Shown in pieces: positions 14,330-63,980 of a stretch of 64,000 nt of DNA (the first letter of the stretch is position 1; each line of letters opens with the position of its first letter). The DNA lies in the NCBI GenBank assembly GCA_965203275.1, contig OZ241865.1, forward strand, positions 1,024,001 to 1,088,000, read 5' to 3'. The notes under the pieces were generated by a model. It was not told the DNA's origin and did not search any database. It was given only the letters and a program-made list of their open reading frames with translations. The translations under genes were made by a program, and so were the position numbers. This DNA is from Bdellovibrionales bacterium. Its GTDB lineage: Bacteria > Bdellovibrionota > Bdellovibrionia > Bdellovibrionales > JAUICD01.

Positions 14330-15345
14330 TGCTGGGATCCGGCACCCCGGCATCAGAAAGAATTCTTTTTCCTTAACATTTCACTCAAAATGCATCATGT
14401 TCACTAAAAATAAACCAGCCTCTGGCTGTTTTTGGGCAATCAGCCCGACGGCTCTCGCCGTCGGGCTAAACATCTTGTTTCCTTAACATGATGTTAGAAA
14501 ACGAAGATTTCCTCCCTACTAAAAGTAAACGGATTTTTGAGGCAATCAGCCTTTGATCGACGGCGAGAGCCGTCGGGCTAAACATCTTGTTTCCTTAACA
14601 TGGTGTTAAGTGGCAAGGATATCCTTTCTTACTTGAAATGAATGGATTTTTTAGGTGTTGCCTATTTTGTCAAAGGCAAAATATCAAAATGAAATAAACA
14701 TCTTGTTTCCCTAACATTATGTTAAAAAATGAGGAGATCCTCCCTACTCAAAATGAGCAGTTTTTTGCGGCATTGCTCTTTTTAGACAGCGTAAGCTGTC
14801 AGAGCAATGCCCAAAAACACACCAGAGGTGTGGCTCATTTTGAGTGAAACAACTAACTCCCTACTAAAAGTAAACGGATTTTTGAGGCATTGCTCTTTTT
14901 AGACAGCGTAAGCTGTCAGAGCAAACATCAGAAGGAAATCTTGTTTCCTTAACATGTGGTCAAGAGACGAGGAGGTCCTCCTTCCTAAAATTGAACAAGC
15001 TTTTGAGGCAGTTAGCCTTTGATCGATGGCGATAGCCATCGGGCTAACTGCCTAAAAGTAGTTAGAAGGATGTTTTCCTTAACATGTAGTCAAAAAACGA
15101 AGAGATCCTCCTCTACTCAAAATGCATAGATTTTTGAGGTAATGACCATTTTGCCAATGGCGAAAGCCATTGCGGTCATTGCCCAAAAACATGCCAGAGG
15201 CATGATGCATTTTGAGTGAACCAAACGGCTAGTTCAATTTTAGGGAAACAGAGGCTGGTTTATTTTTAGTGAAAAAATACCGACGGCGAAAGCCGTCGTG
15301 GTCATCGCCAGAAAGTGGCCAGAGGTCAGACCACTTTTAGTGAAA
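14330..15345. repeat. Mosaic cluster of the structured intergenic repeat (full copies 14706-14848 and 15073-15220, plus nested and partial copies)
   Basis: Recurring TTTCCTTAACATG sites, nested stems, GNRA loops, CCAGAGG hairpin, TTTT(A/G)AGTGAA-type ends. Confidence 0.9.
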
Positions 15346-15390
15346 CAAATGTGTTTGACATTCCATCAAGGTATGTTTATTCTATGCAAA

Positions 15391-16491
15391 ATGAATCAAG
15401 TGAAACAAAATCACCTTAAGAATCAAGCTCAAAAAGAAGAGCAACAAGCTATTTCTCAAGCCCATGTCCATGACCTGTCTTTCAAGAGGTTTTTTGAAAG
15501 TGTAGAGAACATATCAGCCTTTTTAAACCTTGTTTTTTCTCAGGCATTTTTAAATCTTTTTAACCTTGATTCGCTCAAAATAGAAAAGAATGTTTTTATA
15601 ACAGGTATAGAAATGCAAATAGATCTTCTTATTTCATTGACCCTTAAAAACTCTCAAAAAACAGTCAAATTTATCTTTCTTTTAGAACACAAAAGCTGGC
15701 CAGACCATAATGTCTTAAAACAATTATTAAAATATCAGGCCACAGTCTATGAAAAATATGGTTATCCAGTGATTCCTATTGTTTTTTATCACGGGATGAA
15801 AAAATGGACAGTGCCTATCTCTTTCCATGACCATTTAGAATCTCAGGGTTATTTTCCTGATCATTCTCGCAGTCTTATTACTCCTTACCTTATGAATTTT
15901 TCTTATGTACCATTTGATCTATCGGTTTATGATATAGAATCAAAGGCAAAAGGTTCAATGATCAGTCCTATTTTGCATTTATTTCAGGGTATTTGGTCTT
16001 TAGATAGTAGAAAAAGCACAAAGGAACAGCATGATTTTTTCATAAAATTCTTTTCATTTGTGAAAAAAGTGTCGCAAAGTACCGATAAAGAGTATATAAT
16101 AGAACTCATCACTAAAGCGATGACTTATTTTTATCAGTACAATAATCAGTTAAACAAAGAAGTTGTTCAATCAGCTTCAAAAGAGGTGACTCAACAATTA
16201 GGAGGAGAAGATATTATGGAAGCATTTGATTTTACCATAGAAGGAACTATGAAAAAAGGCATTCAGATTGGCCGAGAGGAAGGTCGGCAAGAAGGTCGGC
16301 AAGAAGGTCGGCAAGAAGGTCGGCAAGAAGGTCGGCAAGAAGGTCGGCAAGAAGGTAGAGAAGAAGGAAAGCAAGATATTATCTTAAAAATGCTTAAAAA
16401 TAACATGGATATTTCGACCATCGCAAAAATCACAGAATGCACAGAGAACAAAATACGAGAAATACAGAAAAAACTAAACAACTTAGGCTAA
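15391..16491 (+). CDS. Rpn-family PD-(D/E)XK nuclease (Transposase_31-like)
   Basis: HDLSFKRFF, IDLL, LLEHKS, PIVFYHG, (QEGR)n tail; start at ATG 15391 behind TTGACA-N17-TATTCT. Confidence 0.92.
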   Translation: MNQVKQNHLKNQAQKEEQQAISQAHVHDLSFKRFFESVENISAFLNLVFSQAFLNLFNLDSLKIEKNVFITGIEMQIDLLISLTLKNSQKTVKFIFLLEHKSWPDHNVLKQLLKYQATVYEKYGYPVIPIVFYHGMKKWTVPISFHDHLESQGYFPDHSRSLITPYLMNFSYVPFDLSVYDIESKAKGSMISPILHLFQGIWSLDSRKSTKEQHDFFIKFFSFVKKVSQSTDKEYIIELITKAMTYFYQYNNQLNKEVVQSASKEVTQQLGGEDIMEAFDFTIEGTMKKGIQIGREEGRQEGRQEGRQEGRQEGRQEGRQEGREEGKQDIILKMLKNNMDISTIAKITECTENKIREIQKKLNNLG

Positions 16492-16519
16492 ATATTATTG
16501 TTTGTTGGACAATCTGCAA

Positions 16520-16650
16520 ACCTTATTTCTTAACATGATGTTTATCCGGGATCCCGGGATCAAGCAGTCCGGCAGTCAGGTAAGAAAGGCTGTTTCCTTA
16601 ACGTGGTATAAAGAAAGGAAGGGATCCCTTTTCCGGGATCCGGGATTAAG
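16520..16650. repeat. Repeat fragments (CTTAAC sites, GATCCCGG heptamer-like units)
   Basis: TTTCTTAACATGATG, CCGGGATCCCGGGATC, TTTCCTTAACGTGG. Confidence 0.65.
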
Positions 16651-16684
16651 GGGAACGGAACATTGATCTTAAGGAACTATAAAT

Positions 16685-62014: not shown

Positions 62015-62022
62015 AATATCCC

Positions 62023-62664
62023 TTAATATTTCGCTTCTTCGTTTTGTATTTGATCGGTTTGATTAGTTTGATCAGTTTGATTTGCTTGATCGGTTTGATC
62101 GGCTTGTGGATTGTTAGAATCATGGTTTTCTGACTGGTTTTTTGGCTCTTCTGGAGTTTGGTCTGGAGTTTGGTTTTGATGAGTTTTAACTGCTGTGCTT
62201 TTATGTTGGGGCTTTTCTGTTATTTGTCTTTCAACAGAGATCACAAGATGAGTTTTCATTTTTTCCCCTAGTGATACAGCAACATTATGTTGTCCAAGAG
62301 TTTTAATGGGGGTTTCTATAGAAATGTGCTTGCGATCAATGAAAAGCCCTTTTTTCTCTAAGGCAGAGGCAATATGAGCATTGGTGACAGTTCCAAAAAG
62401 CCTTTCTGATTTGCCTGTAGGAGCATGGATCACAAGATGAGCTTGTGCAATATCTTCTAATAATTTGTGTTGGCCTTTGAGGAGCTTTTTTTCTCGAATG
62501 CGGGCAGCTTCCATTAGATGGTTTAATTCTTTGATGCGTTTTTCAGTGGCTTCTTGTGCTAATTTGCGTGGGATGAGGTAGTTCCTTGCAAAGCCATTTT
62601 TGACTTTAACAATTTGTCCTGCCTTCCCTACATGTTGCACATCTGCTTTTAGAATCACTTTCAT
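62023..62664 (-). CDS. rplI: 50S ribosomal protein L9 with low-complexity C-terminal extension
   Basis: MKVIL..DV...GK.G..V.VK.GFARNYLIP, LFGTVT. Confidence 0.96.
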   Translation of the reverse strand: MKVILKADVQHVGKAGQIVKVKNGFARNYLIPRKLAQEATEKRIKELNHLMEAARIREKKLLKGQHKLLEDIAQAHLVIHAPTGKSERLFGTVTNAHIASALEKKGLFIDRKHISIETPIKTLGQHNVAVSLGEKMKTHLVISVERQITEKPQHKSTAVKTHQNQTPDQTPEEPKNQSENHDSNNPQADQTDQANQTDQTNQTDQIQNEEAKY

Positions 62665-62683
62665 AAGATGTATCCTTTTTTAA

Positions 62684-63133
62684 TTAGTCTTCTTTGCTGT
62701 GTGAATGGCTTAATTTTTGTTGTGTTTCTCTTTCTTTTTTACGGTCTAGACGTTTGCGTTCTCTTTCTCTTTCTTTTAAAGCAGTAGCTTCTAGTTGCAA
62801 TCGGTAGCGTTCTAAATGTTTTTCTAAAGGCACTTTGTCTTCTAAACGGCTATGTAAAAATTTTAATACAGAGCTATTTATTCGCAGTAGCCTTTCTAAC
62901 TCTACAATCACATTTCCGCTAGCGTAAAAACTATAATGAAAGAAAATAGCCATTGAAATATTTTTAATAGGATTGGCAATTGGACGCTTCCCCCAAGTGT
63001 CACAATGGTGTAATTTCCCTTTATGTTCTTCAATGACCTTTTTGTTTTGTTTAAAAAGTGCTTTTTGGTCTTCTAAACTAGTGTCTGGATGAACGACTAA
63101 GACACCTTCATAACAACGTTGTCTTGTTTCCAC
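62684..63133 (-). CDS. rpsF: 30S ribosomal protein S6
   Basis: YE...V.HPD, WGKR.IA.PI, ELERLLRIN..VLK; AAGGAG RBS, GTG start. Confidence 0.93.
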   Translation of the reverse strand: METRQRCYEGVLVVHPDTSLEDQKALFKQNKKVIEEHKGKLHHCDTWGKRPIANPIKNISMAIFFHYSFYASGNVIVELERLLRINSSVLKFLHSRLEDKVPLEKHLERYRLQLEATALKERERERKRLDRKKERETQQKLSHSHSKED

Positions 63134-63436
63134 AAAAATCTCCTTATTTGTTTAGTGTATTATGGATATATTATATTTTTATATGTTATATGAAGTTTTT
63201 ATATGAGTTTAGGATTTTAGGCAAGTATTTATTTTTTTTAATTTTCCTGTTTTCGCTAGGTTCTTGTTTTTGCCCTTCTCTTGCCCTTGCATTGGCAATA
63301 AATCTTTATTGTATCTTTGATTTTAAGGTCAAAAACATAAAGAAGCTACAAAAATGCCTTAATTTTTGTCAAATATGGGATAGAGCTGTTTATTTTGGTT
63401 ATGGGTGAGATTTCCATTGCTTTTTTAAAATATTTT

Positions 63437-63980
63437 TTCACTAAAAATAAACCAGCCTCTGGCTGTTTTTGGGCATTGCTCTGACAGCTTACGCTGTCTA
63501 AAAAGAGCAATGCCTCAAAAATCCGTTTATTTTTAGTAAAGAGGATCTCTTCGTTTTTTGACTACATGTTAAGGAAAAAGTTCATTTAGATGCCGGGTTG
63601 CCGGATCCCAGATCCTGGATAAATACCATGTTAAGGAAAAATTTCTTTTATTGCCTCAAGAGCAAGCAGTTTGCGAATAAAACTCTTTTTCCTTAACATT
63701 TCACTCAAAATGCATCATGCCTCTGGCTACTTTTGAGGGTTAGCCTTTGGTCGACGGTGATAGCCAAAAGGTGTAAAATAGGACTTTTTCCTTAACATGG
63801 AGTTAAGGGACGAAGGGATCCTCCCTACTAAAAGTGGTCAAGCTTTCTAGGCAATGACCATTTTGCCAATGGCGAAAGCCATTGCGGTCATTGCCAGAAA
63901 GTAGCCAGAGGCTAGACCACTTTTAGTGAGCCATTGCCCAAAAACAGCCAGAGGCTAGTTCAATTTTAGGGAAACAGTTC
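63437..63980. repeat. Mosaic repeat cluster (full copies 63437-63576 minus and 63787-63929 plus)
   Basis: Same repeat family in both orientations. Confidence 0.9.

Follow-up and report, generated by a model that had tools for sequence, protein, structure and literature searches.

The closest described systems to the element reported here are the REPs (repetitive extragenic palindromic sequences), the bacterial interspersed mosaic elements (BIMEs) and the REPINs that are found with RAYT genes (PMC3116915, PMC8266576; these and the other papers cited are drawn on for the parts available to us). These repeats occur as hundreds of extragenic hairpin copies, build mosaic clusters and tandem arrays that include flanking sequence, have a narrow lineage range and a strand-specific structure, and leave no regular target duplication. 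The same features were found for a ~145-nt unit, hereafter repeat A, that is dispersed in a 64-kb window of a Bdellovibrionales genome (genome G000, contig C1, positions 1024001-1088000; "the window" is this whole stretch). REPs and REPINs, according to the same sources, are 20-60-nt palindromes in inverted doublets, whereas repeat A is a 145-nt three-way junction with no RAYT or Y1 gene found, ragged joints with target deletion, and stems that are exchanged as modules. Neither a GTAG nor a CGTC tag is visible by eye at an end of the consensus of 715 copies. Our best reading is that repeat A is a REP/BIME-like element of a new variety, which behaves as REP/BIME/REPIN mosaic repeats do yet does not qualify as a member of that group.

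Four other systems offer partial parallels. The CGTC-tagged REPs and the Rickettsia palindromic elements (available part of PMC3733652) are likewise palindromic repeats that occur in abundance, end in short unpaired tails and lack a dedicated transposase; repeat A is larger and branched, has no CGTC tag by eye and no full copy in a coding region, and belongs to a different phylum. The ORF-bearing intervening sequence of 23S rRNA (ORF, open reading frame), which carries an S23p/four-helix-bundle gene (available part of PMC4990558), shows the same pairing of a gene with heptamers as a PF05635 gene and module B, a separate heptamer-repeat module of G000, and both sit in hairpin loops; in contrast, repeat A has neither an ORF nor heptamers and is found genome-wide rather than in rRNA. 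Miniature inverted-repeat transposable elements (MITEs), such as Correia elements and MITEAba12, are also non-coding, multi-copy units of 100-400 bp with a stable fold (defined in the available part of PMC3116915). Unlike them, repeat A lacks convincing terminal inverted repeats, shows no constant target duplication and has no cognate insertion sequence (IS). Integron attC sites share the conservation of structure over sequence, the single-strand fold and a TAAC-like 5' word; repeat A has no matching 3' GTT core by eye, is branched and dispersed in both orientations, and no copy lies near either tyrosine recombinase gene of G000.

How REP-like repeats spread without a dedicated transposase is an open question in the available part of PMC3733652. 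Here, a single family occupies 6% of a 2.6-Mb genome, its stems are swapped but the three-way fold is retained, and its hundreds of joints record the copying chemistry. The question is amenable to laboratory tests: two named candidates (Rpn and a four-helix-bundle protein) are cloneable, and sister lineages carry independent repeats built to the same plan. In the literature searched (mostly without subscription papers, and with supplements not covered), no description of the repeat A family was found.

Copies, fold and stem alleles of repeat A

The source genome G000 is a single contig of 2,567,810 bases with 35% G+C and is 90% complete by markers. A first-pass annotation of the window, made from the sequence alone, had marked eleven full copies of the repeat, and every one was found where and on the strand on which it had been placed. 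A nucleotide profile built from these eleven copies was run on the window and on all of G000. The window contains 28 profile matches, 11 full length and 17 partial; the partial copies, as well as a 40-nt sequence-conserved head, had been omitted from the annotation. Genome-wide, 1,383 matches (715 full) are evenly spread, group into 559 clusters and occupy 157,169 bases, or 6.1% of the genome. When ORFs built of repeat DNA are left out, none of the 715 full copies lies inside a gene. Two public sequencing runs (X1 and X2) gave contig depths of ~580-2,570 over repeat bins and 8-10 over single-copy bins, and this 60- to 250-fold excess argues that repeat A is no assembly artefact. The X1/X2 contigs end at repeats, and there is no clean empty site among them.

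Each unit begins with the head, which has a near-invariant 5' motif and two weak hairpins, and continues into a predicted three-way junction. The latter is composed of a 13-bp outer stem (P1), a 3-nt linker, a P2-P3-P4 arm with a bulged A and a capping loop, a P5 side hairpin with an AGA triloop, and a few unpaired bases. Folding three copies, both strands each, returned the three-way junction with z = -8.7 to -11.5. Three sources supplied 53 distinct copies, in which 97.2% of cells are paired, as compared to 80.3% after shuffling and 33-46% in slid registers, and both partners change in 32 of 41 pairs (without tree correction; RNAalifold reports 32 of 42). The fold is thus strongly supported, and the covarying three-way junction proposed in the first-pass annotation is borne out.

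The parser could read the stems of 578 of the 715 full copies, leaving out 137. Among the 578, P1 pairs perfectly in 479 (shuffle mean 79, maximum 100) and imperfectly in 99, so that the earlier statement that pairing is kept does not hold throughout. These 99 include one of the eleven cited copies (28065-28208), which has outer arms of different alleles, and the side hairpin is missing from another (21773-21906). Each stem has about ten alleles, and the independent compensatory events therefore number in the tens, not hundreds. Arm-to-arm information is 0.72-0.92 for P1, P2, P4 and P5 and 0.69 for P3, while that between P1 and P3, P4 or P5 is 0.34-0.54 and the head loop varies almost freely. 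Because paired arms share more information than P1 does with the other stems, the stems are exchanged as modules. Rare alleles number 0.15 per 100 nt, so the copies are young or homogenised; up to 7 copies in G000 are identical.

Among distinct arm pairs with a single mismatch, read on the plus strand, G.T outnumbers A.C by 37 to 11 (p = 0.0002), which shows that the fold matters on one strand. The inner capping loops of the 578 parsed copies are GNRA in 330, GNYA in 192 and a five-base G...A loop in 52, and follow C-G(N)nA-G with the third base free. The description of these loops as mostly GNRA was too generous, since 244 of 578 (42%) are not GNRA. G-N-N-A mini-hairpins are very stable in DNA, and the loop pattern fits such a hairpin at least as well as an RNA tetraloop.

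A BLAST search with one copy over 41 genomes found matches in G000, in G001 (a sister genome of the same genus) and in G004, one of six further comparison genomes (G002, G003, G004, G021, G022 and G024). The head motif occurs 305 times in G001, nine times in G004 and not at all in G002, G003 and G021. The G004 places examined sit on three small contigs (C1, C4 and C11; loci L091-L093), whose proteins are nearer to those of G000 and which include a further and closer homolog of one gene that a main contig already carries. Judged by sequence, these contigs were probably misbinned from a relative of G000, and repeat A would therefore be confined to one genus among the 41 genomes searched. A pattern scan found at least 41 loci, among the matches listed all in G001; there were none in viral contigs or metagenome contigs, and no match in plasmids or phages. 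As a separate observation, G004 contig C11 has three matches to one ribosomal-operon gene.

Joints, nesting and insertion history

The two ends of repeat A behave differently. The tail end is fixed, with 0-10 variable nt past the outer stem forming a short 3' overhang. After 1-10 extra, mostly A-rich bases, 618 of 992 tails resume inside another copy, with 135 joining points at the end of the P5 5' arm, 51 just past the P5 loop and 65 in the head-hairpin loop on the other strand (all such counts are of joints, not independent events). Head joints are ragged and spread over many positions, with 10-25 nt linkers of few recurring types. When insertions are nested, part of the host copy is usually lost (target deletion). 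An orphan tail follows 134 full copies, 65 of which have a tail-less host upstream, and tail and host match in outer-stem allele in 26 of these 65 pairs (~14% by chance). Stacked tails share an allele in 13 of 225 cases; as this is below the 24.8 expected, they are not self-duplications.

No regular target duplication was found in the 559 G000 clusters (tail-anchored 8-mers, 20 observed and 15.5 expected). The exception is one 8-11 bp duplication event that is present in four Rpn paralogs, and there are a few 60-100 bp duplications, in G001 also after a tRNA and after a gene end. Two further ideas were rejected. That the head linker copies the right flank in reverse was not borne out, since 617 flank pairs gave no enrichment (10.1 vs 10.3), and an autonomous copy with an ORF between head and tail was sought in 8 split arrangements, none convincing and one of them an IS256 insertion.

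Both flanks could be mapped to G000 ORFs for 32 of the 41 G001 loci. In only three of the 32 are the flanks neighbours in G000, and all three sites are empty there, which shows lineage-specific insertion. This comparison suggests that repeat A copies mark rearrangement points, and the element probably drives the loss of gene order between these two species of one genus. Repeat A shows no orientation bias relative to replication (364:351); the cumulative GC skew of G000 is weak and irregular.

Proposed copying into nicks and competing explanations

We propose, with a probability of roughly 45%, that repeat A is a selfish, non-autonomous DNA element that is copied into nicks by primer-template switching, not by cut-and-paste. 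The joints are observed, and from them we infer every chemical step of the copying. Copying would start at a nick, in many cases within a hairpin loop, where the 3'-OH would pair with a folded single-stranded copy at its short overhang; a host polymerase would then copy repeat A tail first, toward the head, and the new strand would rejoin the target at a variable point, giving rise to deletion, duplication or inversion. A protected, defined end would be retained solely by copies with paired stems, and the fold would thus be under selection. With so many copies, conversion of the RecA type would then exchange stems as wholes and disturb gene order; by motif, G000 has recA and polA-like ORFs. 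As for the nick, the Rpn nucleases are the most likely candidate source in G000, because the ends that E. coli RpnA produces carry a 3'-OH able to prime polymerase, and the enzyme has been proposed to allow joining by template switching (available part of PMC5350276). Of the two possibilities raised in the first-pass annotation, a structured RNA or a single-stranded DNA mobile unit, the latter is the one supported.

The genes next to repeat A, and those broken by it, drew attention to two families. A copy lies within 200 bp of 37 of 38 Rpn loci and 11 of 11 four-helix-bundle (PF05635) ORFs, as compared to 299 of 1,417 single-copy ORFs. Fourteen of the 559 clusters split a paralog-supported ORF, and three of these were dropped since the ORF was spurious and lay in another repeat. 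The remaining 11 splits fall in nine Rpn and two four-helix-bundle genes, for which intact paralogs exist, and none falls in the 108-kb largest cluster. Rpn and four-helix-bundle genes are also broken by repeat A in G001. Three Rpn break types were aligned, and all keep the internal start region that makes an antitoxin according to the available part of PMC10400941.

Several points weigh against the proposal. No enzyme was found, and the intermediate and the nick are both inferred, neither being observed. The joint counts are inflated by the copying of composite units, and an RNA template or a rolling-circle nickase is expected to give the same polarity. Closeness to repeat A may only mark dispensable DNA, as pilin-like genes (22 of 27) and the largest paralog cluster (39 of 72; labels by eye) are also near copies, and selection may favour Rpn splits in which the internal antitoxin start is retained. 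None of the seven intact Rpn loci of G001 has a copy nearby, and G003 and G022, with 16 and 14 Rpn matches, show no match to repeat A. Rpn is thus not sufficient; we rejected it as a dedicated mobiliser on these grounds and kept it as a candidate source of nicks. In the available parts of the respective papers, RpnA has little sequence specificity and no cruciform preference (PMC5350276), and Zhong et al. judge Rpn an unlikely transposase (PMC10400941). Two host losses were rejected as permissive causes. The hairpin nuclease gene sbcD is absent in G000 and present in G001, which keeps 305 heads despite it, so its loss is not required, and RNase H is present in all 5 genomes checked.

An unlikely alternative is SINE-like retro-copying (SINE, short interspersed nuclear element), in which a plus-strand RNA trimmed to the outer stem and a few bases would be copied by target-primed reverse transcription, with the reverse transcriptase (RT) acting in trans or since lost. 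Target-primed copying yields a fixed 3' end, a ragged 5' end, variable deletions and occasional duplications. Repeat A displays all of these, including 60-100 nt duplications, and its short A-rich extensions resemble stutter; the G.T bias is on the same strand. Against it, G000, where copies are most numerous and up to seven are identical, has no RT match even at E <= 1, and 244 of 578 loops are not GNRA. Three RT matches were found in G001, and only one of their three loci holds a copy in the 3.5 kb examined, ~440 bp from the gene. One of the matches is a 465-aa ORF that we take to be a group II intron RT. A 590-aa, presumably retron-like protein of G001 (L097:1282-3054) ends in an RT domain, has an N-terminal portion that is unexplained, and is encoded beside a tRNA and a repeat A copy.

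Movement, REPIN- or IS91/Helitron-like, by an HUH (tyrosine) nickase that has disappeared or diverged beyond detection is rather unlikely. HUH elements typically have one fixed and one leaky end, make no target duplication, cluster in mosaics and form single-strand hairpins (available parts of PMC3116915 and PMC8266576), and the conserved, unpaired head motif could be a recognition tag. The tail, however, has 0-10 variable bases and not an exact nick, there is no exact fixed origin end with a fixed target tetranucleotide and no GTAG tag by eye, and the unit is a single asymmetric Y rather than an inverted doublet. The searches were also negative: in G000, there were no matches to Y1/RAYT (PF01797; control positive in 6 of 14, G001 not searched), Y2 (PF04986; control also silent), IS110 (PF02371; also none in G001, present in G002) or Rep_trans, and DinB was not found in G000 or G001. 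Among 84 ORFs flanked on both sides by repeat A, none looks HUH-like (by eye, no profile scan). The transposase, RAYT, IS110 or RT gene flanked by copies for which the first-pass annotation advised a search was looked for and not found. DUF559 and GIY-YIG nucleases were discarded as candidates, being single matches rather than repeat-flanked families. The two tyrosine recombinases of G000 (307 and 187 aa; not scanned with an IntI profile) have no repeat A copy in their loci; the 187-aa protein (L012:1417-1980) is seemingly a catalytic domain alone.

It is quite improbable that repeat A is a passenger of a four-helix-bundle (Avd-like, PF05635) cassette, in which the protein and module B would drive copying into hairpin loops and repeat A would ride along. 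PF05635 has 14 matches in G000, and the protein matches PDB 2gsc (E 6e-4). The genes lie in module B between heptamer arrays, with the ribosome-binding site in a leader hairpin (e.g. G000 L042:1483-1788; L034, L037, L040), and purifying selection acts on them, with 34 synonymous and 11 non-synonymous codon sites across 9 copies. Such a cassette would account for the 11 of 11 G000 ORFs near a copy, the 13 of 19 G001 loci that hold one, and the arrangement of module B, which runs straight into an A head in 220 of 390 cases and is preceded by one in 105; in addition, a repeat of G004 begins with a B-like word. On the other hand, only 220 of 1,168 heads follow module B, repeat A breaks PF05635 genes, and G003, whose own repeat follows the same design, lacks a PF05635 gene. 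In G004, none of 17 loci holds a copy despite 19 PF05635 matches, and the few copies there lie on the misbinned-looking contigs; the genome pattern had first seemed to fit the four-helix-bundle gene as partner, which was rejected on this account. The family is given no known function in the available part of PMC4990558. In three other genomes, the PF05635 gene occurs as a diverged head-to-head pair around the leader hairpin, which suggests a fold-back duplication.

A functional structured RNA or cis-regulatory element under host selection is highly improbable. Strong covariation, strand-specific wobble pairs and 330 GNRA loops are what such an element would show, and the side hairpin scores terminator-like on either strand. 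The case made in the first-pass annotation for RNA-level function was that most loops are GNRA, and it is not supported, given the 244 other loops and the placement of the copies: between co-directional genes, 187 full copies are sense and 177 antisense, and occupied gaps are equally common between divergent (85 of 304) and convergent (83 of 305) genes. The copy nearest a gene tends to aim its tail at that gene (214:84 upstream, 194:151 downstream). Nesting destroys older copies, genes are disrupted, gain is lineage-specific at operon sites, and the repeat is found in one genus among the 41 genomes. The annotation was right in recognising no Rfam family, as the search returned only tRNAs in the window and, for repeat A, no match, with the best weak scores far under the gathering cut-off. 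The RNA-function reading is therefore weak. Least credible, and already largely refuted, is the reading of repeat A as a MITE derived from a resident DDE-type IS (family IS256 or IS1634). It would suit this reading that head and tail share a loose inverted match of 9 bp at the termini, that a single insertion, copied into four Rpn paralogs, has an 8-11 bp duplication, and that G000 IS256 copies make ~8-bp duplications. Against it, repeat A has no similarity to IS256 or IS1634 ends (p 0.12-0.94), head and tail variants do not covary, tail-anchored 8-mers number 20 vs 15.5 expected, and IS256 inserts into repeat A, not the reverse.

Related repeats and features of the window

Repeats of similar design are present in two relatives. 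G003 has ~56 copies of a different unit, composed of a conserved leader, a long, interchangeable, covarying hairpin and a conserved tail (e.g. L216:1375-1500, minus strand; L235; L175), which shares a short GAAG...CCT word with repeat A. This genome has Rpn and no PF05635 gene; one copy of its repeat abuts a truncated Rpn gene, and 4 of 16 Rpn matches lie within 1 kb of a copy (1.07 expected, p = 0.02). The main contigs of G004 carry a third leader-hairpin-tail unit, of which 15 copies were seen (e.g. L080, L163, L164), several beside four-helix-bundle genes; this is the unit that starts with the module B-like word. Dispersed non-coding 16-mers make up 4.69% of G000, 0.78% of G021 (a biased value, since its regions were picked near PF05635 genes), 0.09% of G003, 0.07% of G004, 0.01% of G022 and 0 of G002 and G024 (119-200 kb samples); these seven related genomes are too few for a firm comparison and are confounded with lifestyle. 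G002 and G024 are without both gene families (Rpn and PF05635). It is conceivable, though we consider it doubtful, that these repeats belong to one class of transposase-free, RT-free bacterial mobile DNA with members in G000/G001, G003 and G004, in which a conserved single-stranded leader with an interchangeable covarying hairpin would be copied tail-first into nicked hairpin loops with Rpn nucleases, and perhaps the Avd-like protein, as helpers. If true, the disputed "putative transposase" Rpn would gain a mobile partner and repeats without RAYT would be explained.

The repeat A copies and associated features of the window are listed in Table 1.

Table 1. Repeat A copies, parts of the reference copy, module B and Rpn genes in the 64-kb window
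Feature	Position	Strand	Basis
Full copy of repeat A	14706..14849	+	profile match, folded
Full copy; next come orphan tails of other alleles, stacked, and at 15278-15347 a 3' half	15074..15221	+	
Full copy	21408..21552	-	
Full-length copy without side hairpin	21770..21906	-	
Full copy, heptamer module B ahead of it	27735..27882	+	
Full copy, outer arms from two different alleles (recombinant)	28065..28209	+	
Full copy directly downstream of Rpn gene, tail toward gene	41218..41359	-	
Full copy	42026..42169	+	
Full copy, reference copy	42327..42471	+	
Reference head: conserved 5' motif, weak head hairpin (insertion target), small GATC-centred hairpin	42327..42366	+	
Reference outer stem P1, 5' arm; pairs with 42455-42467	42367..42379	+	
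Reference long arm P2-P3-P4: bulged A, internal loop, G-N-N-A loop at 42414-42417	42383..42441	+	
Reference side hairpin P5, AGA triloop; commonest joining site for tails of other copies	42442..42454	+	
Reference outer stem 3' arm and short unpaired tail (fixed end)	42455..42471	+	
Full copy	63436..63577	-	
Full copy, then partial 3' piece at 63931-63976	63787..63930	+	
Three truncated copies (one minus, two plus) opening the 14.3-15.3 kb mosaic	14398..14680	.	
Two truncated copies between full copies	14857..15066	+	
Copy without 3' third; second inner piece at 27890-27946	27538..27630	+	
Headless copy, tail at both ends (fold-back mosaic)	41889..42011	.	
Module B joined to A head (limits approximate); similar at ~14333-14356, 27679-27717, 27996-28047	27207..27267	+	
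Rpn/YhgA-like nuclease ORF, PF04754; listed start in repeat DNA, true start further on	15298..16491	+	
Second Rpn/YhgA-like nuclease gene, PF04754	40174..41181	+	

Besides its two Rpn/YhgA-like genes, both of which bear 12-nt repeats at their 3' ends, the window encodes housekeeping genes, ankyrin and RCC1 repeat genes and an IS256-type transposase (39 of the 52 listed ORFs were scanned). A purine/pyrimidine-rich hairpin block and an A-rich block are chained to A heads at 27300-27535, and words related to these modules also occur in G001 and on the small G004 contigs. IS1634-type end fragments are joined to A copies at 41370-41450 and elsewhere in G000, and at G000:432252 the inner loop of one A copy is interrupted by IS256. 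Finally, coding tandem repeats with 54- and 21-nt units are found at 35315-36384 in a small membrane/coiled-coil gene family.

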